Virus record (IMG/VR): IMGVR_UViG_3300029305_011880
DNA: 64,000 nucleotides
Source of the DNA: an uncultured virus (IMG/VR IMGVR_UViG_3300029305_011880)
Lineage: Duplodnaviria; Heunggongvirae; Uroviricota; Caudoviricetes
Direction: 5' to 3' (one strand)
Shown: piece by piece, positions 3,062 through 47,532 of the stretch
How the letters are laid out: each line of letters starts with the position of its first letter
Position numbering within the stretch: the stretch's first letter is position 1
Notes under the pieces: model-generated
Databases searched by the model: none
What the model was told of the DNA's origin: nothing
Seen by the model: only the letters and a program-made list of their open reading frames with translations
Position numbers and translations under genes: made by a program

Positions 3062-3931
3062 TTATTTCTCTGAATTTAAAAAATCGCTTAACTCTGCAGC
3101 AGATAAATCTCCTAAGTCTAAAGAATAATTAGAACTATTTAAATTTAAAATAACTCTATTTTCTTTAGTTGCTGGAGCCTCAATATCAACAAACATTGGA
3201 TAATTTTTTAGAAGGGACCACAAAAAAGATGAAACATTGTATTTTTTCAGTGCAATTTTTGATTCAACCAAATTATTAGAAGATAGATATCTAGTAGTTT
3301 CTACATTTTCTACAAACACTTCTACTTCATTATAAATACCATCGATAATTTTATCGGGTTGAGATATTTGCATCTTGAAATCATCCCATAATTCAGAAAA
3401 TCTTAACATTATTTCGGGACATTGTTTCCCACTTGCATCATAATGTCTCACAACATGGTCTGCATCAATATTTAATTCATTCATTAAATATTTGACGAGC
3501 CTTATAGCTCTTGCCCTAGATGCTATATAATTACCATCTGAATTAACACATATTTCAATTCCAATAGAGTTGCTATTGGTTATATCACTATACCCATTAT
3601 TATCCCCAACGTGCCAACCCTTCCAATTTAATTCTAGCATCTGAATTGCTTTTGTTTCGTCAACTATGAAATGAGCACTAGCTTTAGCTTCGGGGTCCCT
3701 ATTCCAATACGAATAAATTCTATCGGCATTTACTCCTTCACCATATCCACCTGTTTCATGTATCACAATATATTCAGGAGTAATTTCCTGCCCAACATCA
3801 TAATTAAATGATAGCAGTTTTTTCTCCATATTTAACGTTTGATTAATTAAATCATTATCTAATGCAGAAATTGAAACGCTTGAAGAAATAAAAATACAAA
3901 ATACCAATAGTAACGAAAATATTTTCTTCAA
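3062..3931 (-). CDS. Secreted N-acetylmuramoyl-L-alanine amidase (Amidase_2)
   Basis: Signal peptide; IVIHETG, ASAHFIVD, WHVG, NSIGIEIC and RHYDASGKQCP motifs. Confidence 0.9.
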   Translation of the reverse strand: MKKIFSLLLVFCIFISSSVSISALDNDLINQTLNMEKKLLSFNYDVGQEITPEYIVIHETGGYGEGVNADRIYSYWNRDPEAKASAHFIVDETKAIQMLELNWKGWHVGDNNGYSDITNSNSIGIEICVNSDGNYIASRARAIRLVKYLMNELNIDADHVVRHYDASGKQCPEIMLRFSELWDDFKMQISQPDKIIDGIYNEVEVFVENVETTRYLSSNNLVESKIALKKYNVSSFLWSLLKNYPMFVDIEAPATKENRVILNLNSSNYSLDLGDLSAAELSDFLNSEK

Positions 3932-6612: not shown

Positions 6613-8952
6613 ATGAAAGAATTAAAAATTATTAAAAGAAACGGAAAAAAAGTACCCTTTAATCCTGAAAAGATAGCATTGGCTATCAAAAAAGCTTTTG
6701 ATAGTGTAGATAATGATAGCTATGGTTTTTCAGATATTAATAAGGTACACAACAAAGTTTTAGAGAGAGTTGATGCTCTTAAAGAAACAAGAACCAATAT
6801 TCGAATTCATGAAATTCAGAATATCACAATTGACGAATTAAACAAGAATGGCTATGGAGATGTAGCCGAAGCATTTTTAGATTATAGAAATAAGAGAGAC
6901 GCTGCGCGTGATTTTATGACTGCAAAGCAGGGCAAACTAATGAAGGCTCTTGAAGGTATTAGTCAGGATGCAGAAGAAGTAACCAGCAAAAAAGAAAATG
7001 CCAATGTTGATGGTAACTCTTCAATGGGCACCATGCTTCAATATGGTAGTGCCATTTCTAAGGAAGTCGCTAAGGCATATTTTATGGACAAACGTTTTGC
7101 TGATGCTCATGATGAAGGCAGAATTCATGCGCACGATATGGACTTTATCCCCATGGGAACACTAACTTGTTGCCAGATTCCTCTAGACAAACTTTTTGAA
7201 AAGGGTTTCTCTACTGGACACGGTTATTTAAGAACACCTAATGATATTATTTCTTATGGAGCTCTCGCAGCAATTGCTATCCAGTCCAACCAGAACGACC
7301 AGCATGGTGGCCAGAGTATTCCTGCTTTCGATTATTATATGGCTCCTGGCGTTCTAAAGACATTTAGAAAGCAGTTAAAGCAGACCGTATATGATGGCTT
7401 AGATATGCTTGGTATTATTGATTTTATTAATTTCAAAAATATTGAAAAAGATATCAACGCAATTACTACCTGTGATGTAACTGCTGATTATTTCGAAAAG
7501 CATTTTACTAATCAGATGATTAGAACGGTTTTTGAAAAGGCCATTCCTAAGGCTTTGGCCAAAACTGATAGAGCTACTTATCAGGCTATGGAAGCTTTTG
7601 TACATAACCTGAACTCCATGCATTCCCGTGCAGGTGCGCAAGTTCCATTTTCTTCTATCAACCTAGGCACAGACACTTCCACAGAAGGTCGTATGGTTAT
7701 TAAAAACCTACTACTTGCTACTGATAGTGGTCTCGGCAAAGGTGAAACTCCTATTTTCCCAATTAGCATCTTCAAGGTTAAAGAAGGAATTAACTATAAC
7801 CCTGGAGACCCCAACTATGACTTATTCAAGTTAGCTTGTAAGGTAAGCGCAAAGAGATTGTTCCCTAACTTCTCCTTTATTGATGCTCCTTTCAATCTAC
7901 AGTATTATAAAGAAGGTAATCCAGATACAGAAATCGCTTACATGGGATGCAGAACTCGTGTTATAGGTAACGTAAATGACCCAACTCGTGAAATAGTTAC
8001 TGGTCGTGGAAATCTTTCCTTCACTTCTATAAATCTTCCTCGTCTTGGTTTGAAATATGGTTGTGCTTTAAACAATAAAACTGATATGGAAGGTTTCTAT
8101 GCTGAACTAGATGAGCTATTAGAAATGGTTAAGGACCAACTACTCGAAAGATTTGTTGTCCAGGGCAATAAGAAAGTTAAGAACTTCCCATTCTTAATGG
8201 GTCAGGGTATTTGGCTCGATAGTAAGGGGTTAAAGCCTAATGACAAGTTAAAGAAGGTTATCAAGCATGGCACTCTTACCGTTGGCTTTATCGGCCTTGC
8301 CGAGTGTTTAAAGGCTCTTATTGGCAAACATCACGGTGAAAGCGAAGAAGCTCAGAAGCTTGGTCTTGAAATTGTAGGACACATGAGAAAAGTTATGGAT
8401 GATTATGCTGCTCAGTACAAACTAAACTTCAGCTTAATCGCTACTCCCGCTGAAGGTTTGAGTTATCGTTTCACCAGACTCGACAAAGCTATCTTCGGTG
8501 AAGTTCCTGGTGTTACCGACAGAGAGTATTATACAAACTCTTTCCATGTACCTGTTTATTACAACACAACAATCGAAAATAAGATTGCCTTAGAAGGTCC
8601 TTATCATGCTTTAACTAACGCTGGTCATATTACTTATATTGAACTTAATGGCGATATTAGCGATAACGTTGAAGCATTCGAAAAAGTTGTAAGATGTATG
8701 AAGGAAAATGGCATTGGATATGGTGCTATTAACCACCCCGTTGATAGAGACCCAGTTTGTGGTTTCGTAGGCGTTATTGGTGACGTTTGCCCTGGATGTG
8801 GTCGTGTTGAATATGACGACCCAATTAAGTTCGAAAGAATTAGACGTATCACTGGTTATCTCGTTGGTACTCTTGATAGATTCAACGATGGTAAGAAAGC
8901 CGAAGAAGCAGATAGAGTAAAACATACTTTTACAGATAAAGATAAAAAGTAA
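6613..8952 (+). CDS. nrdD: Anaerobic (class III) ribonucleoside-triphosphate reductase
   Basis: N-terminal ATP cone (IIKRNGKKVPFNPEKI), TCCQ, MGCRT, YYTNSFH, CPGC and glycyl-radical motif RIRRITGYL. Confidence 0.97.
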   Translation: MKELKIIKRNGKKVPFNPEKIALAIKKAFDSVDNDSYGFSDINKVHNKVLERVDALKETRTNIRIHEIQNITIDELNKNGYGDVAEAFLDYRNKRDAARDFMTAKQGKLMKALEGISQDAEEVTSKKENANVDGNSSMGTMLQYGSAISKEVAKAYFMDKRFADAHDEGRIHAHDMDFIPMGTLTCCQIPLDKLFEKGFSTGHGYLRTPNDIISYGALAAIAIQSNQNDQHGGQSIPAFDYYMAPGVLKTFRKQLKQTVYDGLDMLGIIDFINFKNIEKDINAITTCDVTADYFEKHFTNQMIRTVFEKAIPKALAKTDRATYQAMEAFVHNLNSMHSRAGAQVPFSSINLGTDTSTEGRMVIKNLLLATDSGLGKGETPIFPISIFKVKEGINYNPGDPNYDLFKLACKVSAKRLFPNFSFIDAPFNLQYYKEGNPDTEIAYMGCRTRVIGNVNDPTREIVTGRGNLSFTSINLPRLGLKYGCALNNKTDMEGFYAELDELLEMVKDQLLERFVVQGNKKVKNFPFLMGQGIWLDSKGLKPNDKLKKVIKHGTLTVGFIGLAECLKALIGKHHGESEEAQKLGLEIVGHMRKVMDDYAAQYKLNFSLIATPAEGLSYRFTRLDKAIFGEVPGVTDREYYTNSFHVPVYYNTTIENKIALEGPYHALTNAGHITYIELNGDISDNVEAFEKVVRCMKENGIGYGAINHPVDRDPVCGFVGVIGDVCPGCGRVEYDDPIKFERIRRITGYLVGTLDRFNDGKKAEEADRVKHTFTDKDKK

Positions 8953-8966
8953 TATTTGAATATAAC

Positions 8967-9002
8967 AAAGAGCCGAAATTTCGGTTTCGGCTCTTTTATT
9001 TT
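8967..9002 (+). terminator. Terminator-like hairpin between nrdD and nrdG
   Basis: 12-bp stem aaagagccgaaa/tttcggctcttt with TTCG-containing loop, followed by a T-rich tract. Confidence 0.7.
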
Positions 9003-9018
9003 CTAAAAAGGAGGATAT

Positions 9019-9570
9019 TTGTTTATGGATATTAGATTGGCACAAAAACATTTACAACAAGACAGCGTAGTTGACGGAACAGGTATCAGAGCCGTTCTAT
9101 GGACTCAGGGTTGCCCCCACAATTGTGAAGGTTGTCACAACCCCGAAACACACGACTTTAATGCTGGAATAGTTGTAGATATTGAAAATATTAAAAGAGA
9201 AATAGATGAATTAAAAACACACGATGGAATAACTTTTTCTGGCGGAGACCCAATGTGTCAACCAGAAGCATGCATGGAAATCGCAAAATATGCAAAAGAA
9301 AAAGGATATAATGTTTGGTGCTACACTGGATATCTATATGAACACTTAAACTCCAAGCAATTAGCGTTTATAGATTATATTGATGTATTGGTGGATGGCA
9401 AATTTGAACTAGCCCAGAGAAGCCTTAATTTGCGCTTTAAAGGCTCAAAAAACCAAAGAGTTATCGATATACCAAAGAGCAAATTAAATGGCTCTGTGAC
9501 CATTCTGGAGGGATTTGAGGGCATAAAAACGTATAATCCAATTTACAGCAAACCAGAAGGTATATTTTAA
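9019..9570 (+). CDS. nrdG: Anaerobic RNR activating protein (radical SAM)
   Basis: SVVDGTGIR, CPHNCEGCHN (CxxxCxxC), GITFSGGDP, DVLVDGKF, GSKNQRVID; the start may be ATG 9025. Confidence 0.96.
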   Translation: MFMDIRLAQKHLQQDSVVDGTGIRAVLWTQGCPHNCEGCHNPETHDFNAGIVVDIENIKREIDELKTHDGITFSGGDPMCQPEACMEIAKYAKEKGYNVWCYTGYLYEHLNSKQLAFIDYIDVLVDGKFELAQRSLNLRFKGSKNQRVIDIPKSKLNGSVTILEGFEGIKTYNPIYSKPEGIF

Positions 9571-9738: not shown

Positions 9739-11070
9739 TTAGTGTTGCTTAGCAACTAATTCAACGGTTACTAAACCACTGTTTTTAATTTCTAATTCGG
9801 ATACGGTCACGTAGAATTCCCAATCTTCCATAATGTTTTCATAATATCCAATACCATCTCCAATTTCAATCAAAAAATCGTCATCAATTAAATATTCCAT
9901 TTCTTCAATGTATGTATTAAGGACACCCATACCATACATATCAAAATCTTTTTCCGAGAAGCAACTAATCATAGTAACCTCAGATAACCAACCATCCATG
10001 AAGTCAACGACTATTTCATCTACCACACCATAATCAAATCCTAAACTCTTAGAAGCTCTAGTGCCATAAAGAGAAATACCATCTAAAGATGTAGTATATT
10101 TTGGATTTTCATAACCAATACCTGTTAAGTTTGCTTTCATCTGAGCGGCTTCAGGATATTTTATTGCATAAAATTCATCTAACTGCAAACGCTCTTCTTC
10201 TTCGCTGATAGGTTTTAAATCGATAATATCAATGTAGTTTTCAGGAACTGAAACAACCACTTCACCAGAAGGAGAAATTGTTGTGTTTAATACAATATTT
10301 TTTGAATTATCAGATATAGATAGCAACTCAGAATAAACACCATCAACGTATTTATTTTGATAAGTAATAGCCGCACCTTCACCAATGCTTAAATCTTCTT
10401 GTAATCCCAAGAAAAATTCATTTAATTTCTGGGTGTTTTTTTCTCTTGAAGATTTATATTTGTTTTGCATTTCTTCAGAAACAGAAGTTATTATTTCATC
10501 ATAAATAGTATCAACATTATTCTTTAACAAATTAACCATGTTGATAACAAAATTACTAGCACTTTCGCCCGATAAATTTACGGTTATAACATCTTTTTCA
10601 ATTGTCGCCAAATCTTCATTTTGAGAAACATAAGTAGATAATGTATTTTTCATAGCAATATTTAAATATTTATTAATTACATTAAAATTTAGATTACCAA
10701 GATTTATTTTTTCATGACCTCCAGAAATCAATATATAATCGACATCGGTTTCTTCCAATTCATCGAACTCTGCTTCTAGGTCAGCAACGATATTACCATT
10801 TTTAACATATATATTATTACTATCTATAATTACCTGAGAATAGTCAGTAATATCATTCTTGGATATAGCAACATCTGTTATATTATTAACATGAGCGCCA
10901 CTAAAAGTGTAGTTTGTGTCATTAACCTTTAAGCTACCAGATATATTATAATTTTGCGTTGCGATTTTAGCATCTAGATTTTCTGTAAGTGTTGGCAAAG
11001 CGGATTTACATCCAGTTAGACAAAAACACAGAACAGAAATCATCGCAATTAGTGTAATAGACTTTTTCAC
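9739..11070 (-). CDS. Hypothetical lipoprotein
   Basis: GTG start, signal peptide with lipobox LTGC, 443 aa. Confidence 0.75.
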   Translation of the reverse strand: MKKSITLIAMISVLCFCLTGCKSALPTLTENLDAKIATQNYNISGSLKVNDTNYTFSGAHVNNITDVAISKNDITDYSQVIIDSNNIYVKNGNIVADLEAEFDELEETDVDYILISGGHEKINLGNLNFNVINKYLNIAMKNTLSTYVSQNEDLATIEKDVITVNLSGESASNFVINMVNLLKNNVDTIYDEIITSVSEEMQNKYKSSREKNTQKLNEFFLGLQEDLSIGEGAAITYQNKYVDGVYSELLSISDNSKNIVLNTTISPSGEVVVSVPENYIDIIDLKPISEEEERLQLDEFYAIKYPEAAQMKANLTGIGYENPKYTTSLDGISLYGTRASKSLGFDYGVVDEIVVDFMDGWLSEVTMISCFSEKDFDMYGMGVLNTYIEEMEYLIDDDFLIEIGDGIGYYENIMEDWEFYVTVSELEIKNSGLVTVELVAKQH

Positions 11071-12500
11071 GAAACGTCCTCCTTAACTACAAATTTTATT
11101 TCCGAAACTTTGCCGATATGTTCAACTTGCTTTTTTAACTCTTTTCCTTCTGTTGAGTTATTTAACAATTGGTACATATCTTCCAAATTAATATATTCTT
11201 CTGATATTATATTAATTTCACCTGTCTCATATAAATTTTTAAAATCAAACGAAATCTTTTTGTATTGTTCTTTTGCAGCAAATTCAAATGCTTTTTCTCG
11301 TTTCTCTAATTTATAAAATTCGTTATCGTAATAGAACCAATCAATATCACCAATATTTTTAATAAAAACAAAATAAGAATTATTCTTTGACGAATAGTAT
11401 TCTTTACTTAAAATATTAATAACATATCGTTCTATATTTGACTCATCTTTTAATATAGATTGCAACTTATTATTTATTTCTTTATTTGTAATATCAGGTT
11501 CAAATTCTTTAAGAATGAACTCTGCCATGTCCCAACCAATTTCATCCCTTGATAAATTTGTCAAAATATTATAAACCAAAGCATTATCTCTTACATAAAT
11601 ATCTATGTCAAAAATATTATCAGAAATATTTTCAAGCATATAAACATTTTCAAGATTTTGGTCGTACATATATTTATCCCAAGTCTTAGTATATTCATTA
11701 TAAATAACTACATTAAAACCCGAAATTTCACTCATCCTCAATGCGTATTTGCTTTTTATAAATTGAGAGCTATCAGCTAATTTATTAGAGATTTCTTCTT
11801 TGGTAAAAGATAATTTATTGTAGTGTATATAACCATCCTCTAAATAAATAACCAAATTATATATTGTTTTGTTGTCTTTTTCATCAAGCAAAATACTTGG
11901 TTCTACTTTTTTTATAGTTTCTATCGATTCTAAATACTTATTCATTTGTATTTCTTTATCTATAAAATACATATATCCCGAGCCAAACAACTGAAATATG
12001 CTTATGATTACGATAATAAGTATATACTTTCTTAAAATTTTTTCCCCAAAGGTATTTTCATTTTCAAAATTGTAATCAATTTTGTACAATCTATGAAGCA
12101 AGGTTTTCCCCGTTAATAAATAGATAAATGCATTAAATAATGAAAATATAGGTATATGTTTTAAAATTTTTAATTTGAAAAACATATCTTTAGAAATAAT
12201 TTCGCCATTAACAATATATTTGTTTTTTTCATAATCATCATCCAACATCCAAATATCTATAAAACAATGTATTATTGAATATATACTGGATTGAATTAAA
12301 AAGACAATTATTGCTGATTCAAAAAATATAAACATTTCACTACTAACAAAATATATAGGATTTAAAGAGTTAGCAGGAATTAGTAAATATGGCATATAGA
12401 ATACATTACCTAAAATAAAATAACAAATTATGAAGGATAGCGTAAAAGAGAATATTATCTTGGGTAAATTGGATAATATTTCATATTTTCTATGATTCAT
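11067..12500 (-). CDS. Hypothetical polytopic membrane protein with large C-terminal soluble domain
   Basis: About 4 hydrophobic segments in the N-terminal 180 aa; GGAGG RBS; 4-bp overlap with the next gene. Confidence 0.7.
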   Translation of the reverse strand: MNHRKYEILSNLPKIIFSFTLSFIICYFILGNVFYMPYLLIPANSLNPIYFVSSEMFIFFESAIIVFLIQSSIYSIIHCFIDIWMLDDDYEKNKYIVNGEIISKDMFFKLKILKHIPIFSLFNAFIYLLTGKTLLHRLYKIDYNFENENTFGEKILRKYILIIVIISIFQLFGSGYMYFIDKEIQMNKYLESIETIKKVEPSILLDEKDNKTIYNLVIYLEDGYIHYNKLSFTKEEISNKLADSSQFIKSKYALRMSEISGFNVVIYNEYTKTWDKYMYDQNLENVYMLENISDNIFDIDIYVRDNALVYNILTNLSRDEIGWDMAEFILKEFEPDITNKEINNKLQSILKDESNIERYVINILSKEYYSSKNNSYFVFIKNIGDIDWFYYDNEFYKLEKREKAFEFAAKEQYKKISFDFKNLYETGEINIISEEYINLEDMYQLLNNSTEGKELKKQVEHIGKVSEIKFVVKEDVS

Positions 12501-17963: not shown

Positions 17964-20900
17964 TTAATTGACATAATCAGCTCTTAAATACTGGTCAAAA
18001 CCGTTATAGATTTCAAATACAACGCCTTCTTCATTACCTTTATCAGTTGAATGGACATACCACTCTTTACCATCGCTATCAGTATATACATAAATACCAA
18101 TATGTTTTTTCTCTTTGAATGCCCAATCACCAGGCAATATACTAGATTTAGAAATAATCTTTGTATTATCATCGTTTTTAATGTCAGTAACTGTATCCCC
18201 AGATGCGTAATAATGAGTACCAAACGTATTATAAGACACCCAACTTACAAACCCCGAGCAATCTAATCCGTCTTTTGCAACACGTCCAACCCACCAACCT
18301 CCTCCAGGAGAATTATGCCCACAAGTTCTATCATCTCTACCCCAAGATGGATTAACTCCTTTATACGGAGGATGTGAGTGTCCGCCGCCATAGAAATAAG
18401 GGACTCCTCCCACAAGCGACAAGGCATTTCTAAGAATATACTCTCTATCTTGAGATAATGTAGGATGATAAGATTTCACGGTAGCAATAATTGCATCAAT
18501 TTCTGCAGAACTCATTGCCCCTTCAACCAACCCAGCACCTCGAGTCCATTCAGTAGATAGCCAGTAATATGGGTCACATTTTGTATTTTCAGCAGTATTA
18601 TCTAATAATTGGCCAGTCTCCAAGTCTTTTGCTTTAACAAGCACTTCGAAGTGTAAGTGGTCGCCAGTACCAACACCACTATTACCCATAATACCAATTG
18701 GGTCATCAAGAGATAAGCATTTTCCGCTGCCTCCTGCGCTTGCACAGTTAGAAGATATGACATCACCCTTAACAACATTTGGGGTCATAAACATATGGGC
18801 ATATCTAGTAAATATGCCAACTATTTGATATCTCTTACCCGAAGTATCCGTGACAATAGTATTAGCAGGAACGGTATGTTCAATCTCAACCCAATGACCA
18901 TAACCACCATCATCGTATCCGACGTAACTTACTCTTCCTTCTGCAGCAGCAAGAATACCAGGTTTAGTAGTGTAAGCAATATCTACACCATTGTGCATTC
19001 TTATATCTCCATATACAGGATGTACTCTCTTTCCGAACTCAGAGGTTACGTTTAAATCTGTAACAGTTGGGACAGTTGATATTGGAGACTGTAAAGGAAT
19101 TAATGGCGTAATAAATGCAAACTTATAAGATGCATCAACGTCTTTAGAAGTTTTCTTACCTAATTTACTTATTTGAGGATTACCACCCAAGAAACTGTTG
19201 TTTGTTCCTGTTGAATCATCTAATCTTTCTGTAAAGAAGTCCAATAAACTATGTTCATTGGCATACATATAATAATCTTCCTTACCAAAATTAGAAACGT
19301 TTAGAATTAAGGTAGTTACATCATCTCTAGAAGTAGTCATTCTAGGAATATATAGTTCCATACCAGAATTTTGAACTTGGAACATATCTCTCTGGAACGC
19401 AATATTACCAGTTTGTAATCCAAATGAAGCTCCTCCAGTAGCACTTGCACCAGAATAAGACAAACCGAAATTAGTATTCAATTCTGCCGTTGCTAACGAG
19501 GTGTCATAATATCTTGCAATATGTTTAACATAGTCTGGAAACTCACTTGTTTCGTTTCTGTATTTACTATAACAAGAATACCAGTTAGGGTCAGATATCT
19601 TACACTCTGTTCCACTAACCCAACCGTTATATAGAACAGCGGCCAAGAACCCATCATTATTAGTTCTTATCAAATTGTTACTAATTTGAATTATACCGTA
19701 CTCAAAAGCCTTTTCAACATTTCCATATCTCTCATCGTTAGCAAGGAAAGCAGGTATATCCGCCAAAGAAGTAACTACGCTTTCTGGATTTTGCATATTA
19801 ACAACTACTTGCTTACCAGTTAAAGTAGATTCGATTGTCTTAGTACATTTTTCACCTGGTTTAGCATTGTGTCCATCTCCATCACAATGATGGTGTATCT
19901 GTCCTATACCGCCACCGCCGTTATAGCTATTATAAACATTACTATAAACTTCAGTACAAACAGCTGTAGCTCCAGTAGTCCAAGTAATTACACTATCATC
20001 CTTGCATAAACCAGCAAATGCATTACCACTTGATTCTTGTGTAAACATTGCAACCGCCAATGCGACATCAACCTGATATTCAGCACAGAAGGTATCAAAT
20101 AATGGTTTCCACTTAGAATAAACTCTTTGAGCTTCTTCCTTCTTAGTACCAAGAGGAACGCCACTAGCAGCCGCAGGAATTGTGGATGCGTTATTTAATA
20201 CCGTTTTACTACCAGAATCTTTAACATAAGCCAATGTTTCTGTTACGACATCATTTGTATACATAAACATATTAATTTTACTAGCATTCATTCTTACAGA
20301 ATCATCACCTGTTAATTCAGCTAAAATATCCGCAACCTTATTAGCATCATCACCGTTAAACCAGTCTGTATCTCCCTTAAGCTGAACTTTTGTGGCAAAC
20401 GCTTCACCATGGAAATAAGCTAATATAGCATATTTAACATCTCCATACTTTTGAACTAATTTACCAAATTTATTAGATACGTATTTCAGAGCTTTAACTT
20501 TGTCCAAACGTTCATCAGTGGTATCATTAACTGTCAGTGACACATCGTCAAAACAAACGGTATAGTCAGTACCTGGACCACAAGTGACAATTATATCTCC
20601 AGTTGAAATATTGTCAGAGGTTGGAAGATTCCCATCTTTATCAGGATTGTAATTATAGAAAATTACGCCAGGCCCAACATCGGTAAGTCTAAATGTCTTA
20701 GAACTACCATCTTCAAGGCTCAAAGTAACCTCTACCATGTTGGAACTGCTTCCGCCTCCAACCCCAACCGTATTGCAAATATAATTAAACCATTCTGTGT
20801 ATTTAGAATTCTTTAAATGTATACCATCGTTGGTATCACTAGTACTAATATTACCAAGATATGCATTTACATCCATGAAATTAACACCTAATTCACCAGC

Positions 20901-23900
20901 TAGCTTTTCAATTATTTGATTTTTCTTATTAATATCTGCGTTTCTAACCAAATATCCCTCGGATGCTGCTAAAGAATCATTTACCCCAGAAATACTACCA
21001 ATATAAATAGTTGCACCAGGATTTTTAGATTTAACAGTATTCACCAGGTCTTTATAATTACTTTCAAATACTGAATCAGTATTTGTTGCGTCATTCATAC
21101 CAATATTAATAAATACTGTTCCATAATTGGAATAAGATTTAGCTGCATTTTTAGTAGCTACGATACCACGTCCAACTACAGCATCTACTACTGCCCCAGT
21201 TCCATCAAGCAACCCAGTATTCTTTATCCCAACAGTGAGCGAGTCCCCAAGGAACAAAGTATTATAGAAACTGGCTGTTGTACTGGAACTATTTAAATTC
21301 GAGCTACCACCAGTAAGTGTCCCATTTACTGCGTTTTCAATAATTGAACGGTTAGCACTTGTGTCTGCCACTTTTTTATTGTCGTCCAAAATATTTTGAT
21401 TAAGTATGGAAATCATCTTTTGAGGAGCCCTATCAATACTTACCTCAAGCAAACCAGAAATCAACTGAGAAACAGCGGTTGCATTTAAATCGTTACCAAA
21501 CTTCTTAATGGTTTCTTCCCACGCAGGAGTGTTTGCAAGATTATAAATGTCATTACTTAAAACAGCTGTATTCTCAACATGGTTTGTTTTTGTATTAAGA
21601 GTAGAATGATATGCCTCACGTCCTCTAGACATTAAATCGTAGTCACTCTTTACGTCCATAGGAACATAAGTCTCAAAATTCATAATGTAATCATATAAAT
21701 AGCTTTGTGTTTTATTCTTTTCTTCAAAAATGGCATTTTTCTGAGCTTCAGTAGTATCATCAGTCAAAATCAATCTAGAATTCCAACTGTCAAATACCTC
21801 TCCATTAAAATAATAACCTCTTTGTCTAGGAAGAATTTCACGCATTACACCAGAGAAATGTCTGAAGAGAGGAATAGGATAACCATAACTTTCTCTATTA
21901 GCAATAAATAACCCTACGCCAATTTCATCATATTCTTCCTCGTGTATTATGCTAGTACCAGCTTCAAGAGTCAAGGAACTCCAACCATCACTACCACCAA
22001 CAGTAACAGGGTTAGAATTAAATCCAACAATTGCATCTGCGGCTCTCCAGATTTCATATAAGTCGTTTTTAGATTTATCGGAATCGTTTTTCAACGTCAC
22101 AGGATGTTGCAAGCCAGCATCTAAATCAACGCTCATATGTAAGTCGTCTGGTAACCCAACGGAAACATCTATTTTAGTAACTTCTGTTTCTGGCACAACA
22201 TATCCTTTTCTTGCAGTAATATTGGCATTGACGTCTTTAATATTCTGATAATGATTTTTGTTATCACCATCAAACAATCCCCCAGATTTACTTAATGTTA
22301 AATAATCTTCATTGTAATCGTGACTAAAGTCTTTATCAATATCCCCTTTATTTACCTGCCATCCCCAAGACCAATCACTTAAGGAATCATATATCTTCAT
22401 ACCAATATAAACTCTATCACTCAATGTACTAGTAGAATCTAAACTGGAAGCTTTCTCCAAAACCGCCTTTATTTCAGCAGGAGTATCAATGATGTATCCG
22501 TCTTTTGCTGGTAAAACATCTGATACGGTAGCGTAATAGTTATAGTGAGTTGTATAGTAGGGTTGATAACAACTATAATCTTCCCATCCGCAAACTCTAT
22601 CTTCTCCTTCCCCCGTACACTCCCAACTGGAACAACAGTTTGTACACCATTTACTTTCGGAGGTATATTTACAGCTTGTTCCTGCGTCTAAAACTTTAGG
22701 CTTAGCCTCTCCAGTAAACCAAGATACTATTGTCTTCCATACATCCCCATTCAATTTAGTTTGTGCAGTTTCTTCTGTATAGCTTGGACAAGCAGGATAA
22801 CCATTCCAACTACCTTTACTACCACTACCCATATCTTTCACTACGTATTCAACCATTGGAACGTTAAATATATAGTTACTCAAATAATAGTATCTATCTG
22901 CATAAGCTAAACCACTAACTTGTCGGTCACTACTACCGCCACCAATATTAACGATGTCATTTTTGTAAGTGTAATTAAATGTACCCAAGAAAGTAACGGC
23001 TTCATCAATCATGTAAATACGATAAGATTCATTTTCAAGAATCAAATTCATAGGTTGTAAATCTTGACCATATTGATTGTAAAAATCTTTCTTGAATTCC
23101 CCGACAATGTTTTCACCAGCTCCAGCAAAATCAGAACCAATATTTAAGAAGTGCTGGTCAACATTGACTTTGCTTAACCCATCATCTGTATTTTGAATTC
23201 CCAATAATGCAGCAGAACCAGCGACATGAATTTCGGTTACAAACTTACTACCGTCAACAAAGTGTAAAGCCTTAGAAATGATACTATCATCATCTTCAGC
23301 TTTCCAATCAAACCACTCAACATAATACTGAAGAGGGTCTAAAAATTGGACTTGAGTAAAAGTGTTAGCACTTGGGAACAATCCACCAAATATGGTGTCC
23401 CAAACACTTGCAATCCATGTAGGCTCTAAATAAGGAGAGTAAGCATATACCCCATTTAATTTGTCAGGGTCTATAGAATATGTACAAATTTGACTTAAAT
23501 CAGGCCAGTTTTCTTCGCAAACTTTCAAGCATCTGGTCTCTTTTTCTTTAATAACCGATTCTTCTTCAGCCTTTTCTTCTTCGTTTAAGTCTGGATGTAT
23601 TCCCTTTATTTCAGTTTCAGCTTCAGTTTTACATCTTCTTTCGCAATCAAAAAGACCTTCATTATAATATGCACCAGTTGCTTGTGCGTTAAGCAAGCAT
23701 TGCTTTAAACCCTCGATGTCATCTTCGTCTATATGGTCACATTTGTCATATGCGCTTTCACAAATATTAGTAGTTTTATTATTTTTTACAACGTCAGAGT
23801 TTTTAATTGCCGAGTCTAACTCATCTTTAGAAATTAATGGGAACCCATCAATCCCTTCATTTACAGGACCAACATATATACCCTCCATATTTCTGCCAGC

Positions 23901-26900
23901 AACAATTTTTACCAGCTCGGCTCTAATATCTTCATATTTTTTACTAGAAGCTTTTTCTTCTGCCAAATCCATCTCATAATCAGTAGCTGCATATTGTAGA
24001 GAAACAATGTTTTGCGCAAGTTCCATTAAATCTTCGACAGGAATTGGGGTGCTTCTTAGAGCCTCTGTTAAAGAAGGATATCTATCCAAAAGCTCTTTTG
24101 GATAATAACCATTACCAGCTTTACCAAAATTATCGGAAATGGTTTTATCCCCAATGATTGTCTCAAACGACTTTTCAAATGCACTCTTACCTACGTAAGT
24201 TTCATCCATAAATACGCCAGTTTGATAAACAACTCTCATGTCTTGGATATAAGACAGTACAGAACCAAGACCATAGTCCCTTACGGATTTAGTTTCATAT
24301 GGCAAATAATCGCCTCTATATGTTTTATATGTAACTCTTCCTTCAATGGAATAATCAATTCCGCTGGTTATATTTGTATGAATGCTACCAGAATTTGTAG
24401 GTCTATAAGTTTTGGCATAGCTATCCCAAGCTTCAGTAGTATTTCTCCAATCTCCGCCTTCATTATAAGCCTTCAAAGCATCAACTAAAGAAACGGTATT
24501 TCCATCATGCCCCTCAACAGCAGTACCTTTACTTGCAGCATGAGAATCTAAATCGTTAATATAAGCTTCCCAACTTACAGGTCCGCTATCGACTATATCT
24601 CCAGAAGCATCATAACTATATCTAAAATCATCTGGACCATAATGCACACCATTTGTCAAATAATCCGTAATCTTAGTAATTAAATTACCTGTAGAATATA
24701 CGGGCAACTCAAGAGAAGCTTCTCCTTTAACTCTTTCAAGAACTTGGCTACTATAATCGCTAGCTACGTTTGAAATTTTCCAACCATAACCAGAATTATT
24801 ATTGTTGTTGTTACATTTACCACTTTGGTCTTGACATAATGCGCTTTGACCAGAAATTATGGATGTAGGAACATAAGTAGTACTTACGGTCCTTTGACTA
24901 TCAAGAGCCTTAACTGTATCTAAAGTCTTTTTGTAAACCGTCGTGCTGTTCCATTTATCTACGACCACTTCTTTTAATCCAAAAATATCTCTATATTGAG
25001 CTTTCTTAAACGCTAAATCAAGTTCCGTTTCAGTGTAATATTTATAATCCCAAGCGACACCGTATTCGCCAGTTTCAATAATATAATCGTCATATGCTAA
25101 CAAAAGATGAAACATTGACTCAGAAGAAATATTAATTTCTGCTTCAGCATCTTCGCCAGTAACTAGATTTGTAATGCTTTGTCCAAATTCTTTCCATTTT
25201 GCCCATGTATAAGCATAGCCACTAGCGCCAGTATATCTTCGAATCACGGAACAATGTCTCTGATTAAAAGGCAATTTAGCATCATTTTCATAGTCTTCTG
25301 GCTCACATGTAGTAACAGTATTTCCTCTATGATTTACAAATTCACAAGAACCTCCAGATGCAGGAATCGCACTGTCAGTACTATAATCGAAATATAAATC
25401 TTCGTCTCTTGCAGGAGGACATCTGTTAAGGTCTACATTTGCAAAATCTTCAAAACCAGAGAAGTATTCTGGGAAGAATCTATAAGAATCTCTTACACTC
25501 TTCTTTTGCACAAACGTTTTATTGAAGAGAACCCTAGAATTTAACTGCATATCACCATATTCATCAAATACAGATACTAATTGCATATGTCTAATAGGAT
25601 ATTTATTATATTCACAACGAACTTTAACCCATCCATCAATGTATGAATCACTGGAGTTACCATTTTCAGGGTTAATATAAACAATTGATTTATCTCCGTC
25701 ACAAATCAAAGATGTTGTATCAACTTTAACTGAACCAGAACTAATATTTAATCTTGTATATGGTCCCTCGAAAAATGTTTTATAGTTTTGATTTGTAATG
25801 GTTGTACCCATATGTTCATTAAATGGATTGTTTCCATCATCTGTTTTTGATTTACCCGTATCAGGACTATATCTGGTATCAATAACCCTCCAATACAACT
25901 TGATAGCAGATTTTTTATCTACGGTGCTTCCGTCTTCATATTCGAATTCTTCCGTGACCGTAGCATATTTACCGATATTACCCCAAGACATTTGTTTAGC
26001 TAGCTCATTATTAGCCTCCGACCAATAATAATTATTCTTTTGTTCAACAACGTAATCATAAACAATATGACTTGGTTCAGACTTGATAATACCTTCCAAC
26101 CAATCTTTCTCATAATAAACACTAGATATATTGTTAATATCTCTTAATGTAACTCTTTGTGTTACATAGACATATGGAGAACCAATATTTTCTTTTTTAC
26201 CAGTCTCCTGAATACGATAGAAATCATTAACAAAAGCAACAGGCTTAACAAATGCTTCGGGATAAGTTATTGTCTCAAGATTACTAAATTCACCAAATAA
26301 AATACGATTCATTTCAGACAACAAAGTTTCAGAAATTTGGAAAGTAGTTTCTCTGTTATAATAATCTCTAAAAGTTTCATTAACAGTATTTAAACTAGTC
26401 TTCAAGTCTTTTTCGTCCACATTAATACCAATGATTTTTGGTAACTTCATATATTTTAATGCATTCTTATTAGCATCAGAATAGATATATCTTTCATCAA
26501 GAGAACCCAAGCCTATCCAATTTCGAGTCATATTGTAGTAGTTTAAATCCATTTGGTCTAGGTCATCTTGTACTAAACCCCAATCATATAGTTTATTTAC
26601 AATCTTTGCATATGTGTCGGTTACTATATTCATACTTTCAGGATTCAAATCCCTTAGATTAAACACTTGATAATAAGATGTTTCTGATACAAGTTGCATA
26701 TAAGCCTTTCTTAACTCGTTTGTGTTTTGAGCATCCATATAAATAGAAGTATCAGAATTCATTTCTTCGAATTTGTCGAAATCAATATTTATTTTCCCAC
26801 TAAAAGGTCCATTTAACGAACCAAATACCCCCATAACAGCGTTCAACATCGTTCCTATGCAAACAACACAAATAACTACTATCAAGAAATCAGAAGAAGC

Positions 26901-33763: not shown

Positions 33764-34102
33764 TTATTTTTTCTTTTCTAAATAAGACAACTCAAATTCT
33801 TCCGCTTCTACACGATAATTTGGTAGCTTTTTAATTACTGTTTTGTGATATTTTTTCAATCGCAAATATGTATATAATGGTAACCCCTTTATTTTTACTA
33901 AAGCGAATACTCCGCCAATTGGAACAAAAATTACTACTCCAGCAATGATAGATGCTGTTCCTAAAAATGCGAATGTTGCAAATGAAAATATTGCAGCGGC
34001 ACCCACACCAGCAAGAATGCAAATTAATTGCGCACCTGTCAATATACCACCAACGATTTTTTCTTTTTCGGAAATATCAGGTGGAACACTATATACAGCC
34101 AT
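33764..34102 (-). CDS. PrgI-family (VirB3-like) protein
   Basis: YSVPPDISEKEKIVGGILTGAQL start, two TM helices, GLPLYTYL; upstream of virB4. Confidence 0.8.
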   Translation of the reverse strand: MAVYSVPPDISEKEKIVGGILTGAQLICILAGVGAAAIFSFATFAFLGTASIIAGVVIFVPIGGVFALVKIKGLPLYTYLRLKKYHKTVIKKLPNYRVEAEEFELSYLEKKK

Positions 34103-34253: not shown

Positions 34254-34847
34254 TTACTTGTTTCTATTCAAATTTTTAAATTTTATTTCATTTATATCAA
34301 CCAATTTGCCTTTATATGTCTCAATATAGTCTAGCATTTCACCAATATCAGTGAATACAGAAAACAAATTGATTGTTTCCTTAGACAAAAATCCTTCTTC
34401 AGACATATCATCTAATAAAGAAATGATTTTGTCATAAAATCCATTTATGTTAAACACGACAATCGCTTTTGAGTGTCTCGCTAATTGTTTCAGTGTTAGT
34501 ATCTCAAAAAACTCATCAAAAGTTCCAATCCCACCAGGAGTAATTATAAAAGCATCCGACATATCTTCTAAAATTTGTTTTCTTTGTCTCATGGTTTTAG
34601 GTTGAATTAATTCATCACAATTGTCAAATAACACACCATCAACATTAAAGAACGAAGGAGCAATACCAACTATTTCGCCGTTATATTTATCTACCCCTCT
34701 TGCAGCAGCACCCATCATCCCTCCAGCTCCTGCTCCAAAAATTAATGAATGTCCTCTTTTGGCAATTTCTTCACCAAGCTTTTCTACTTGCGTTATATAA
34801 GTATCATTTATCTTATTACTAGAAGCTCCATATACACAGATTTTCAT
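34254..34847 (-). CDS. LOG-family nucleotide 5'-monophosphate nucleosidase (TIGR00730 type)
   Basis: KICVYGASS, GMMGAAARG, MRQRKQ, PGGIGTFDEFFE motifs. Confidence 0.92.
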   Translation of the reverse strand: MKICVYGASSNKINDTYITQVEKLGEEIAKRGHSLIFGAGAGGMMGAAARGVDKYNGEIVGIAPSFFNVDGVLFDNCDELIQPKTMRQRKQILEDMSDAFIITPGGIGTFDEFFEILTLKQLARHSKAIVVFNINGFYDKIISLLDDMSEEGFLSKETINLFSVFTDIGEMLDYIETYKGKLVDINEIKFKNLNRNK

Positions 34848-35233: not shown

Positions 35234-35797
35234 TTATAGTGCATTGTAGAAGAATCCAGCAATGATGGAAACAGCACCTAAACCAGCAGCTGCAAGACCA
35301 GTCCAAAGAACACCAGTGAGGGCCTGAGAACGAGCCTGAGGGTTACCAGCACTAGAACCGAGCTTCATGAAGTTGATGATGAAGAATACAATCATAGTGA
35401 TTGCGCCAACACCAGAAACACCAACTACAACAGTTCTGTACTTACCGAAAAGGTTGTTCCACTGGTTGCTATCACCAGTACCAATACCCATAACATTTAA
35501 TCCACCTTCATCGGTCATATTAACATTAAAGTTATCAACTTCAGGACGTTCCTTTAACCAAATCTGCTTAGAAACACCATTAATAGAAACCATAACATCG
35601 TAAGAATAACCAGCAGCGGTATCTTTAGCTAAACTGTAATCAATATTAGCACCAATAGCCTGAGCTACCTGGCACTCTTCCGCAGTAGATGCAACTCCAT
35701 CACAAGTGGATTTAGCAGCGAAAGCAGGAGTAACCATAGTTACAGCGAGAATCATAACGACTGCCATTAAAGCAGCAAATCTTTTAAACATAGTCAT
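35234..35797 (-). CDS. VirB2/TrbC-like pilin, probably the major subunit
   Basis: Signal peptide (PAFA), Cys pair, two hydrophobic helices flanking KLGSSAGNPQARSQA; strong AAGGAGG RBS and own terminator; upstream of prgI/virB4. Confidence 0.65.
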   Translation of the reverse strand: MTMFKRFAALMAVVMILAVTMVTPAFAAKSTCDGVASTAEECQVAQAIGANIDYSLAKDTAAGYSYDVMVSINGVSKQIWLKERPEVDNFNVNMTDEGGLNVMGIGTGDSNQWNNLFGKYRTVVVGVSGVGAITMIVFFIINFMKLGSSAGNPQARSQALTGVLWTGLAAAGLGAVSIIAGFFYNAL

Positions 35798-38240: not shown

Positions 38241-38987
38241 TTACTTGTTAAAAGCAATATCAATATAATTTTCGAGGTCGCCTTCATTTACCCCGCCATA
38301 AGTAACGAGCTGAACTTCACCGTTTTCAATGTAGAGGAATGTAGGAATCCAAGGAATATAGTTCATAATAGTGCTATTTTCCTGATTAATATCTTTCCAA
38401 ACGAATGCATTTTCTCCAGAAGCATTAAATGCACTAATATCACCAGTTGTATCAGTAGTCAAGGAAATCACAGGAATTTCAGAATGAGACTCACGGAACT
38501 TATCAACTACAGGAATACTTGCATTACAATATCCACAAGTAGGACTGAAAATCTCTAAGATATACTTTTCAGCTCCGAAATCAGCATTAGAATGCTTTAC
38601 ACCTAGAGAGTCTTCCCAAGGAATGTTAGGCATTGCGCTTCCAATTAGCTGAGATGCATACATCTTAGATTCTGCATCACCATAGAAGTTTTCAACTGTA
38701 ACATTCTTTTTCTGGTTAATAACATACTTGCTGTAATCCACAGATTGTTGAATGTTAGTGTCATCCCCACTAGACTGATTGCCAGAATTGTTTGGCTGAG
38801 TAATAGTAATTGCAGATTCGCTAATCCGATTTTCAGTTCTAGCTTCACCAATCAAATAACCACCGATAATACCCAAAGTAAAAGACAAAATAACGGAAAG
38901 AATTAATATAGATGCGGTAATTTGACTTCCAGTATTTTGTGTCTGAAAATTCTTTGGGTTATTTTTATAATTGCTATTGTTTCCCAT
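38241..38987 (-). CDS. Membrane-anchored thioredoxin-like (TlpA/ResA-type) thiol-disulfide oxidoreductase
   Basis: N-terminal TM, IGSAMPNIPWEDSLG lead-in, FSPTCGYC active site, WIPTFLYIENG cis-Pro loop; upstream TTGAAA-17-TATACT. Confidence 0.85.
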   Translation of the reverse strand: MGNNSNYKNNPKNFQTQNTGSQITASILILSVILSFTLGIIGGYLIGEARTENRISESAITITQPNNSGNQSSGDDTNIQQSVDYSKYVINQKKNVTVENFYGDAESKMYASQLIGSAMPNIPWEDSLGVKHSNADFGAEKYILEIFSPTCGYCNASIPVVDKFRESHSEIPVISLTTDTTGDISAFNASGENAFVWKDINQENSTIMNYIPWIPTFLYIENGEVQLVTYGGVNEGDLENYIDIAFNK

Positions 38988-45903: not shown

Positions 45904-47532
45904 GTGAATTTAATGGCTAGAGCATTTTACAGAACTCGATGGATAGAGGAATTAAATAGCAAGTATAAGAGTGGTATCGCAAATGCTTTCATTATCGCTG
46001 GTAATATTGGTGACTATGCAATTACTGATACAAAAGTAGAAACTTATATTGGTAAGTTTCTAGACACTAGACTAGACTTTGAAGAAATTGCATTTTTTGA
46101 TATCGTTAATGGTGCAAAATACATGAAGTCGAAACAGAATGAAGATGGTGAAAATATTTCTCACGACGGAGATAACCTTTTAACTATCTGCACTAAGCTC
46201 AAAGACAATTCTATTAAAAGAGCATATATTGTATCCTACACTTCTTTAATGATTCCTGCTGATGATAGAATGTTACAGGATAATGATAAGAGAAATATGA
46301 TTAATCTTCACAAGACTTTAAATTCTAATGAGTTTATTGGCTCTGATAATATGATTATTTTCTTGTGTGAGAGCGTAAAAGACATGAATGGAATGTTCAT
46401 TTCTTCTAATTCTCGAACATATCTTATCAATCTTACTCTCCCTGATGAAAAGGAAAGAGAAAGATATATTAACGATATTCTTAATGATAAGAATAGAGGT
46501 TATACCTATGAAAGCGATATTACCAATAACCTTTTTGCAAAGTTAACGGCTGGTCTTTCCCTAATCAATATTGAAGATATTATTCTTCAGGCAAATGACG
46601 AGGGAAAGCTAACCAAAAAGATGATTCTTGATAGAAAGAAGGAACTTATTCGTAAAGAGTATAGTGAAATTATTGAGCTATACGACACAGATGGATACGG
46701 ATTAAAAGACTTCGCTGGTCAGGACCATATTAAGGGATACTTCCAAGATGTTGTAATTGATGCAATCAAAGAAGACAATTTGGAAATCGTTCCCAAGGGT
46801 GTTCTTTTAATGGGGCCTCCTGGTACTGGTAAGACATATTTTTCTCGTTGTCTAGCAGGAGATGCTGGTATCAATTTTGTAGAATTCAAGATGTCTAAGA
46901 TTCTTGATAAGTGGGTTGGTGAAGCAGAAAAGAATCTAGAAAAGGCGTTTTCTGTTTTCCGTGCGCTTGCGCCCGTTGGCGTATTCATCGATGAGGTTGA
47001 CCAGGCTTTAAGCAGAGGTGACAACGATAGCAACTCCGTAAGCAAAAACCTATTTGGTATGTTTTTGTCCGAACTTTCTAAGGCAGAAAATCGTGGTAGA
47101 ATCGTTTGGTTAGGAGCAACCAACTATCCTAATAGACTTGACGACGCATTTAAGCGTTCTGGTCGTTTCGATAAGAAGATTCCTTTCTTCGCACCTGAAG
47201 AAGCTGAACGCGCAGAAGTTTTTAAGATTCACCTAAACAAGACCAAAACTAAAGTTGCCGATGATGTAGACGCCACCGTTCTCGCAAAAAGAACTGATGG
47301 TTATACTCAGGCAGAAATTGAGAACATCGTAGTTAAGGCTCTAGAATTAACTCAGCGTCGCAAATTAGAATCTATTAACCAAGAAACTCTTATGCAGGCT
47401 CTAGACTATATGCTTACTGCACAAAGCAAGAACATTAAGGAAATGGAAGACATTGCATTGAGAGAATGTAATGACCTTGAGTTGCTTCCTGACAAATATA
47501 TTGCTCGTCTAAAGACACTAAGAGATATTTAA
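45904..47532 (+). CDS. AAA+ ATPase (Ycf46/SpoVK-like, degenerate N-terminal module and active C-terminal AAA)
   Basis: PKGVLLMGPPGTGKT, VFIDEVD, ATNYP, RSGRFD; the start may be ATG 45913. Confidence 0.88.
   Translation: MNLMARAFYRTRWIEELNSKYKSGIANAFIIAGNIGDYAITDTKVETYIGKFLDTRLDFEEIAFFDIVNGAKYMKSKQNEDGENISHDGDNLLTICTKLKDNSIKRAYIVSYTSLMIPADDRMLQDNDKRNMINLHKTLNSNEFIGSDNMIIFLCESVKDMNGMFISSNSRTYLINLTLPDEKERERYINDILNDKNRGYTYESDITNNLFAKLTAGLSLINIEDIILQANDEGKLTKKMILDRKKELIRKEYSEIIELYDTDGYGLKDFAGQDHIKGYFQDVVIDAIKEDNLEIVPKGVLLMGPPGTGKTYFSRCLAGDAGINFVEFKMSKILDKWVGEAEKNLEKAFSVFRALAPVGVFIDEVDQALSRGDNDSNSVSKNLFGMFLSELSKAENRGRIVWLGATNYPNRLDDAFKRSGRFDKKIPFFAPEEAERAEVFKIHLNKTKTKVADDVDATVLAKRTDGYTQAEIENIVVKALELTQRRKLESINQETLMQALDYMLTAQSKNIKEMEDIALRECNDLELLPDKYIARLKTLRDI

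Follow-up and report, generated by a model that had tools for sequence, protein, structure and literature searches.

Little is understood of the way in which type IV secretion systems (T4SSs) of Gram-positive bacteria get through two thick walls, and the hydrolases characterised so far are small: CwlT (ICEBs1), TcpG (pCW3) and TraG (pIP501) are two-domain conjugative hydrolases of about 300-370 aa. Wall O-acetylation is widespread as a defence against lysozyme and also acts as a control on lytic transglycosylases. According to PMC6174289 and bioRxiv 10.1101/2021.09.23.461501, lytic transglycosylases are blocked by 6-O-acetylation of N-acetylmuramic acid (MurNAc), a modification that Ape1 removes, and the effect of O-acetylation on muramidases is discussed in PMC11323569, which also reports that PrgK at full extension gets no further than midway through the enterococcal wall. 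Here we analysed a 64,000-nt stretch of DNA recorded as an uncultured virus (IMG/VR IMGVR_UViG_3300029305_011880; "the window" denotes this whole stretch), in which a T4SS gene cluster contains a gene for a 3062-aa multi-domain wall hydrolase (P0001, "the giant"). Judged from its sequence and from structural models, the giant is a real, catalytically plausible and enlarged member of a conserved group of megaplasmid T4SS hydrolases, and we put forward its link to wall O-acetylation as a hypothesis.

The giant gene has an AGGAGG box 7 nt ahead of its ATG, and the identical full-length protein is recorded on 14 contigs (the longest of 297 kb) from three source collections, which rules out an assembly accident. 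The datasets listed with the gene are DNA from animal faecal or gut metagenomes, and none of those listed is RNA. All four enzyme domains, SGNH/GDSL, SLT-like, M23 and NlpC/P60, lie in the last 1100 aa (Table 1). Pfam was run both on the complete protein and on a set of eleven pieces that overlap, and paired bit scores are given as whole protein / excised piece: Lipase_GDSL_2 (PF13472) scored 46.1 / 54.0 (cut-off 32.9), Peptidase_M23 43.8 / 54.0 (cut-off 28.7) and NlpC/P60 27.7 / 33.0 (cut-off 23). The SGNH domain carries GDS (S1971), G1994, GMND (N2020) and DGIH (D2109, H2112). The zinc motifs of the M23 domain, HxxxD (HNGVD; H2720, D2724) and HxH (HLHFE; H2832, H2834), are invariant in all seven aligned giants, and in the NlpC/P60 domain DCSGF (C2965) and HIGIY (H3017) align with FDCSGY and HVVMY of the plasmid hydrolases described below. 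The preliminary description of this DNA had placed four cell-wall domains with catalytic motifs in one 3062-aa protein and called for a domain HMM scan. The ORF, the domains and the catalytic residues were all recovered, the domain positions agree with the computed ones to within a few tens of bases and the motifs were found at their given places in all four domains; in the scan itself three domains pass their Pfam cut-offs and the SLT domain stays below its own on the giant.

By the positive-inside rule the giant would have an N-in/C-out topology, which would put about 2950 residues outside the membrane, the four enzyme domains among them. An ESM Atlas search with aa 110-1950, most of which make up the long arm ahead of the enzymes, gave no usable match. 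Two Cys-rich stretches of this arm (aa 1131-1223 and 1455-1528; 22569-23762, minus strand) hold 15 of the protein's 41 Cys residues; together with a TlpA-like thioredoxin gene nearby, they hint at disulfide handling for the giant.

The SLT call was accepted despite the sub-cut-off Pfam score because relatives of the giant pass, the motifs are invariant and the fold matches. Eight of 11 giant relatives exceed the Pfam SLT cut-off, with 25-52 bits. The motifs in the giant are TQESSG (E2373-S2374), GGGGIGQ (2412-2418; within GIGQI) and YNGW (Y2508-N2509), and E2373-S2374, GGxGQ (G2415/G2417/Q2418) and Y2508-N2509 are invariant in a 7-row and a 12-row alignment. An AlphaFold model of aa 2130-2580 built from the 12-row alignment has a mean pLDDT of 71.6, with about 85-95 over most of residues 210-380, and places the catalytic E2373 (model E244) at the end of helix 234-245. 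When model residues 204-436 (aa 2333-2565) were compared with 48,161 PDB representatives by VIA-align, the best eight were all lytic transglycosylases (5o2n lytic transglycosylase, MltE, MltC, MltF, Slt70, Pseudomonas aeruginosa Slt, Cj0843c and MltD; Z 8.8-10.8, 143-159 residues aligned, rmsd 2.9-4.2). The same enzymes fill the top Foldseek rows for the aa 2130-2580 model, though these rows are non-significant, and a PDB sequence search with aa 2130-2570 gave nothing (best E 0.15, an unrelated enzyme). We accepted the domain as a predicted glycosidase of SLT/goose-lysozyme fold with large beta-hairpin insertions, an assignment that does not tell a lytic transglycosylase from a muramidase. The module between the SGNH and SLT-like domains keeps D2213, R2215, K2228, Y2246 and E2250 invariant and shows a sub-threshold match to the C-terminal half only of the SLT profile; its aa 2205-2255 score 13-19.5 bits with Pfam SLT in P0001 and two relatives (P0003 and P0005), below the cut-off, and the fold search is dominated by residues 204-436. 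This module may be a degenerate lysozyme-like remnant.

For the SGNH domain an AlphaFold model was obtained from a 49-row alignment (pLDDT 90.7), in which S1971, G1994, N2020 and D2109/H2112 are invariant or nearly so. The model has a three-layer alpha/beta/alpha flavodoxin-like fold with 170 PDB matches at E <= 0.001 (Foldseek), and among the matches listed nearly all are SGNH-type esterases or acyltransferases. Sialate O-acetylesterases of Bacteroides/Phocaeicola are the only significant solved relatives by sequence (phmmer E 3e-9) and also lead by fold (Foldseek E 4.6e-9, TM 0.74), followed by putative Bacteroides acylhydrolases, platelet-activating factor (PAF) acetylhydrolases, the OatA C-terminal domain, an acetyl-xylan esterase, Campylobacter jejuni CJ0610C (8gr2; E 2.4e-7, TM 0.61) and PatB. 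CJ0610C is, we assume, Ape1. The giant's domain is modelled as a compact 180-residue core, and because the CBM35-like insertion of Ape1 is absent from it, the domain was not filed as a member of the Ape1 family. On this evidence it is a compact domain of predicted acetyl-ester type, with neither sequence nor fold naming its substrate.

The 11 giant relatives came from two protein collections of 5.8 and 1.84 billion entries and from metagenome contigs, all metagenomic and of 2764-4301 aa, two of them found by a pattern scan of metagenomes. Pattern scans of GTDB species genomes and IMG/VR returned no giant relative, which is no evidence of absence with only 2-6 peptide patterns. The 4301-aa protein (L002, 921-13826) is a distant relative (32% identity) with a sub-threshold M23 only, in which SLT, NlpC/P60 and SGNH were not recognised. 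An SGNH domain occurs in 6 of the 12 giants (the window protein and 5 of its 11 relatives) at three different positions: between the N-terminal region and the SLT domain in the window protein, P0003 and P0004; beyond NlpC/P60, as the last domain of the chain, in P0010; and at aa ~430-630, in the N-terminal region, in P0008 and P0019. Pfam and HMM searches did not find it in P0005, P0006, P0007, P0014, L001 or L002. All six domains have retained the Ser, the Gly, the Asn of block III and the His, and P0008 has Glu for Asp.

In a quick maximum-likelihood tree of 148 SGNH domains, HMM-matched from the large protein searches and built with no outgroup, all six giant domains fall into one 18-row clade (SH-aLRT 97). 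The clade also contains three SGNH fusions to wall hydrolases (SleB-type; C39+M23; M23+CHAP+NlpC/P60), and its other members are nine small proteins with hydrophobic, signal-peptide-like N-termini. The company of wall-hydrolase fusions supports a wall-linked esterase. Among 22 other SGNH relatives of at least 380 aa, the 3 with wall hydrolase domains lie in the clade and 19 outside it; the latter carry wall-binding repeats or SLH (5), DHHW/AlgX/DUF4358 (3), SGNH only (8), or pieces of GDPD, beta-lactamase-like or radical-SAM type (1 each). Distant plasmid-borne SGNH relatives (27-29% identity) stand in MBOAT-DHHW-DUF4358 clusters at both loci inspected. On Clostridium and Bacillus megaplasmids (L006, 11761-15660; L008, 5885-11931), the clusters with such distant SGNH relatives comprise genes for a GDSL esterase, DUF4358, MBOAT and DHHW proteins, are located by polysaccharide deacetylase genes and look like wall-polymer O-acylation/de-acylation operons.

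The giant gene directly follows the VirB3/PrgI, VirB4 and VirB6-like genes on the same strand, so that the "VirB1 position" given to it earlier is true in the Gram-positive sense. By this gene context and its predicted membrane anchoring the giant is a T4SS-associated peptidoglycan hydrolase of the monoderm type. A tblastn search of PLSDB with the VirB4 protein gave 51-65% identity to genes labelled "DUF87" on large plasmids of cultured Bacillota, among them plasmids of Aneurinibacillus, Brevibacillus, Paenibacillus, Geobacillus, Bacillus thuringiensis Bt407 (BTB_502p), Clostridioides (pESW1602) and Clostridium perfringens (pJFP838A). The gene order of the window is shared by all four plasmid loci inspected (L003, L004, L005 and L007): TlpA/thioredoxin, sigma-70, ClpX, a small pilin-like gene, PrgI, the N-terminal part of VirB4, VirB4, a large polytopic VirB6-like protein, a multi-domain hydrolase and a small two-TM (transmembrane) protein. 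The BTB_502p stretch listed runs from ClpX onward only, with the thioredoxin and sigma-70 genes not seen. Outside the cluster, an AAA ATPase gene (45904-47532) has five of the same plasmids as its top five matches (50-54% identity), and the protein at 11067-12500 has no plasmid match. Given the synteny and the AAA ATPase matches, the source of the window would be a relative of this megaplasmid family or a chromosome with such a segment, and an uncultured gut Bacillota bacterium harbouring a megaplasmid-like element is the best explanation for its host. An origin in the candidate phyla radiation, raised by the PF18895-type pilin and the missing relaxase, was dropped in view of the VirB4 identity and the full synteny with Bacillota megaplasmids.

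In the slot of the giant these plasmids encode hydrolases of 1066 aa (pESW1602, UDN64076.1), 1148 aa (pJFP838A, WP_061429576.1), 1125 aa (BTB_502p, WP_001001494.1) and 886 aa (Aneurinibacillus plasmid, WP_272443404.1, annotated M23). The first three consist of SLT, M23 and NlpC/P60, with SGNH in none of these three scanned by Pfam; thus three chemistries are ordinary at this slot. An hhalign comparison of the giants with the four plasmid hydrolases gave a probability of 99.9 and an E-value of 9.6e-32 over 526 columns, the match beginning in the SLT domain and extending through NlpC/P60 (aa 2351-3055 of P0001, aa 482-1043 of the pESW1602 protein). Further upstream, short collinear BLASTP matches (E 6e-6 to 1e-2) connect aa 261-316, 953-981 and 1817-1843 of the giant with aa 164-214, 242-270 and 400-426 of the plasmid protein. 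These matches lend weak support to a conserved N-terminal scaffold split by insertions of ~640, ~830 and ~500 residues, the last of which would hold the SGNH domain. By this comparison, new in the giant are only the SGNH domain and ~2000 extra residues. The preliminary description had contrasted the four-domain giant with conjugative hydrolases well under 1000 aa; the contrast is true for CwlT, TcpG and PrgK and overstated in view of the three-enzyme hydrolases of 1066-1148 aa at the same slot.

Within the cluster the VirB6-like protein is 54% identical to the protein encoded upstream of the giant relative in L001, where the giant again follows a VirB6-like gene, and 29% identical to its counterpart in pESW1602. 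The pilin-like counterpart in L001 comes after the hydrolase with one small ORF intervening. In pJFP838A an HNH endonuclease gene seemingly divides the VirB6-like gene (L004, 17847-22008) into two ORFs, which may be a mobile intron or an intein-like insertion. In its publication (PMC4747519) this plasmid figures solely as a "unique mega-plasmid", 70% of whose genes are hypothetical, and in the literature searched no description of the megaplasmid T4SS and no study of its hydrolases was found. The system, with pilin-like genes and no coupling protein (T4CP) or relaxase nearby, recalls the Patescibacterial T4SS of PMC12102498, whose VirB2-like pilins are reported there as absent from the monoderm MPF-FATA class. 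Table 1 lists the features of the giant and its cluster.

Table 1. Features of the giant hydrolase and of the surrounding T4SS gene cluster (positions in the window)
Feature	Position	Strand	Basis or remark
Giant hydrolase gene (P0001), 3062 codons	17964..27152	-	uninterrupted ORF; bitopic membrane protein
Single TM helix, aa ~85-110	26823..26900	-	hydropathy scan; follows Lys/Arg-rich N-terminal 80 aa
Predicted extracellular region, ~1840 aa	21303..26822	-	no Pfam family in Pfam scans
SGNH/GDSL esterase-type domain, aa 1967-2113	20814..21254	-	Pfam Lipase_GDSL_2, motifs, AlphaFold model
Beta-strands-then-helices module between SGNH and SLT, aa 2130-2330	20163..20765	-	conserved in alignments
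SLT-like domain (family 1 lytic transglycosylase/goose-lysozyme fold) with large insertions, aa 2333-2565	19458..20156	-	alignments, fold match
M23 (LytM-type) metallopeptidase domain, aa 2718-2842	18627..19001	-	Pfam and motifs
NlpC/P60 (C40) cysteine peptidase domain, aa 2956-3038	18039..18287	-	Pfam and motifs
Membrane-anchored thioredoxin/TlpA-like gene	38241-38987	-	counterpart in 3 of 4 plasmid stretches listed
VirB2-like pilin candidate	35234..35797	-	signal peptide and two C-terminal TM helices; matches below curated cut-offs
LOG-family (lysine decarboxylase-like) gene	34254-34847	-	between pilin gene and PrgI
PrgI/VirB3-like protein	33764..34102	-	ahead of split VirB4
VirB4 ATPase split in two ORFs, 365 aa and 664 aa	30638..33744	-	NCBIfam CD1110-family model, 252 bits
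VirB6/PrgH-like polytopic membrane protein, 1070 aa	27300..30512	-	position, topology (signal peptide, TM helix cluster)
Secreted protein with C-terminal TM helix, 216 aa	17195..17845	-	between giant and pilin-like gene
Second pilin-like small membrane protein, 181 aa	16568..17113	-	counterpart just after hydrolase in L003, L004 and L007

Elsewhere in the window there are genes for an Amidase_2 protein (N-acetylmuramoyl-L-alanine amidase; 3062-3931, minus strand) and for an anaerobic ribonucleotide reductase (NrdD/NrdG; 6613-9570, plus strand). An ORF of more than 4438 aa runs past the window end (50637-63998, minus strand) and has at least eight ALK/LTK glycine-rich (PF12810) stretches over three pieces; it is adjoined by a gene for a 932-aa SLH-domain protein (47585-50383). 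tRNA and Rfam scans of the window found none, and a promoter scan (89 hits against 80.2 +/- 8.2 in shuffles) did no better than shuffled sequence.

We propose that the giant is the wall-breaching enzyme of a Gram-positive-type T4SS and that its SGNH domain acts as a wall esterase, a reading from sequence and models to which we give an even chance. One TM helix would anchor the extracytoplasmic part that ends in the four enzyme domains, and the long N-terminal region would serve as an arm that extends their reach and places them across a thick wall, the donor's or that of a contacted cell. The SGNH domain would strip ester groups, most likely O-acetyl, from wall glycan, most plausibly from 6-O-acetyl-MurNAc; that its substrate is peptidoglycan O-acetyl specifically is a more tentative proposal, which we put somewhat below an even chance. 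Removal of the ester would let the neighbouring SLT-like glycosidase cut the glycan, because O-acetylation blocks lytic transglycosylases and hinders muramidases, and the M23 and NlpC/P60 domains would cut the peptide cross-links (cross-bridges) and stems. In the preliminary description the esterase had already been proposed to make the wall ready for the glycosidase. This proposal gains comparative support from the three positions of SGNH in the giants, from the wall-hydrolase clade and from the nearest solved structures, which are carbohydrate O-acetyl esterases and transferases; it is weakened by the half of the giant family without SGNH and by the SLT domain, which may be a lytic transglycosylase or a muramidase and whose equivalent in PrgK is described as a muramidase (PMC11323569). 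The wider host range that was suggested with it is speculation. On a wider and rather doubtful reading, members of the SGNH clade would have been recruited at least three separate times into the 2800-3100 aa wall-spanning arm of a pilus-bearing, T4CP-less T4SS that is common to Bacillota megaplasmids and resembles the Patescibacterial one; ester removal, probably of peptidoglycan O-acetyl and maybe in the wall of the contacted cell, would then be an integral and selectable step of wall penetration. Instead of repeated recruitment, there may have been one SGNH origin followed by shuffling inside the giant protein.

Several observations weigh against the proposal that the giant breaches the wall for a T4SS with the help of an esterase. 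The domain that would profit from de-esterification scores only 12.3-14.0 bits with Pfam SLT (PF01464, GH23) on the giant (cut-off 21.3), and Foldseek with the aa 2130-2580 model gave no match at E <= 0.001 (best E 0.14). The closest solved structure to the SGNH domain is a sialate esterase and not Ape1, and PAF acetylhydrolases, which act on lipid esters, score almost as high as the sialate esterases in Foldseek. SGNH appears dispensable for the core function, since only 6 of 12 giants have it and all three scanned plasmid hydrolases are without it, and the SGNH tree is a quick search with long branches on several key rows. In PrgK the LytM domain and the CHAP domain are reported to be inactive and only the "SLT" domain, a muramidase, to be active (PMC11323569); by analogy, intact motifs would be no guarantee of activity in the giant. 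Terminator-like hairpins on both sides of the giant gene (27286-27257 and 17962-17925) suggest that it may be transcribed alone. No T4CP or relaxase was found among the scanned window ORFs of at least 80 aa, and the related plasmids, of 300-720 kb, are typed as non-mobilizable in PLSDB; given these two observations, conjugation by this T4SS is not implied.

The alternative that stays closest to our proposal keeps the wall-breaching role in the T4SS and lets the SGNH domain de-esterify another wall polymer (an O-acetylated secondary cell-wall polysaccharide, teichoic acid or capsule), clearing access to the peptidoglycan. The MBOAT-DHHW-DUF4358 clusters by polysaccharide deacetylases that hold the distant plasmid relatives point in this direction, as do SGNH relatives fused to DHHW/AlgX, GDPD, choline-binding and SLH modules, the SLH protein encoded in the window and the best solved SGNH relative, which acts on a non-peptidoglycan sugar. 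In the giants' own 18-row clade, however, the fusion partners are peptidoglycan hydrolases and not polymer-binding or O-acylation modules, and we regard this alternative as unlikely. Lipid has also to be considered as the substrate: as a lipase or phospholipase the domain would attack the membrane of a contacted cell and help to open a mating pore. A close relative, P0013, bears the source name "lysophospholipase L1-like esterase" and PAF acetylhydrolases are among the top fold matches, but both the fusion partners and the neighbours in the clade are enzymes or binding modules of the wall, none of them lipid-related, and the small PAF-acetylhydrolase-like SGNH fold is acetyl-specific among the solved examples listed; we consider a membrane target very improbable.

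The chemistry could also run in the opposite direction, with the SGNH domain as an O-acetyltransferase or brake in the manner of OatA or PatB, which would acetylate the wall locally and limit the damage done by the giant's own hydrolases. Foldseek matches the model to the OatA C-terminal domain and to PatB (E 9e-8 to 5e-7), there are weak matches by sequence, and the accessory domains of PrgK are reported to down-regulate its muramidase (PMC11323569). Known transferases, however, work with a membrane partner as acyl donor (the MBOAT-SGNH pairs of PMC12148441), no MBOAT or OatA-type gene was found among the window ORFs scanned, and TM-scores are 0.72-0.75 to esterases and 0.61-0.63 to transferases, so that we give this possibility the smallest weight of all. 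There remains the question of whether the giant belongs to the T4SS or is merely sited in the cluster, either as a weapon against other bacteria or a host or as a general autolysin, lysing neighbours through glycan, peptide and ester bonds. Its enzyme load is far above the need of channel assembly and the protein is very large; the possible terminators on both sides would suit such a role, related T4SSs are without recognisable conjugation-specific parts, and T4SS-linked wall hydrolases are reported as essential for epibiotic Saccharibacteria (PMC12102498). The TM anchor, together with the conserved slot and homology in all four syntenic plasmids inspected and in L001, fits a built-in component, and no immunity-like gene was recognised adjoining the giant; a weapon or autolysin is thus improbable in our judgement, and the T4SS wall-breaching enzyme with a wall esterase is the reading that we prefer.

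In the literature searched, no T4SS hydrolase was found to be described with an SGNH domain or any esterase module; the main text of PMC12102498 has no "SGNH", "GDSL" or "esterase", and its supplements and those of PMC10633639 may list such domains. If the proposal is true, the esterase of the giant would connect wall O-acetylation directly to T4SS function for the first time. The comparison further exposes a T4SS type that is common to plasmids of 300-720 kb in Clostridium, Clostridioides, Bacillus and Paenibacillaceae; its traits are genes for pilin-like proteins, a VirB4 in two parts and a hydrolase that unites three enzymes.

Compared with known systems, CwlT, TcpG and TraG combine a glycosidase with an NlpC/P60 or CHAP peptidase for Gram-positive T4SSs and, unlike the giant, lack M23 and SGNH domains as well as a long extracellular arm. 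TraG is cited in PMC12102498 and PMC11323569. PrgK of pCF10 (871 aa; LytM + SLT/MUR + CHAP), as presented in PMC11323569, comes nearer: like the giant it is bitopic, joins M23-type and SLT-type domains with a Cys-peptidase and is encoded beside VirB4 in a T4SS of monoderm type. It differs in its domain order, has no SGNH and is 3.5 times smaller; its LytM domain is without the HxxxD and HxH motifs, both kept by the M23 domain of the giant, and its "SLT" domain is a muramidase, whereas the SLT-like domain of the giant is a predicted glycosidase. Ape1 of Neisseria and Campylobacter has an SGNH catalytic core like that of the giant and would follow the same logic, de-O-acetylation before a lytic transglycosylase; it is described as an enzyme that is free in the periplasm and carries a CBM35 insertion (bioRxiv 10.1101/2021.09.23.461501), which the giant's domain does not have, and by sequence and fold the sialate O-acetylesterases are closer to the giant than Ape1. 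The closest counterparts are the megaplasmid hydrolases, which occupy the same slot and share the SLT-linker-M23-NlpC/P60 block and the collinear N-terminal motifs; they are a third of the giant's size and without SGNH, while the ~2000 extra residues of the giant would separate the conserved N-terminal motifs from one another and from the SLT domain. We concluded that the giant is in kind a known T4SS peptidoglycan hydrolase and that it is new in composition and size.

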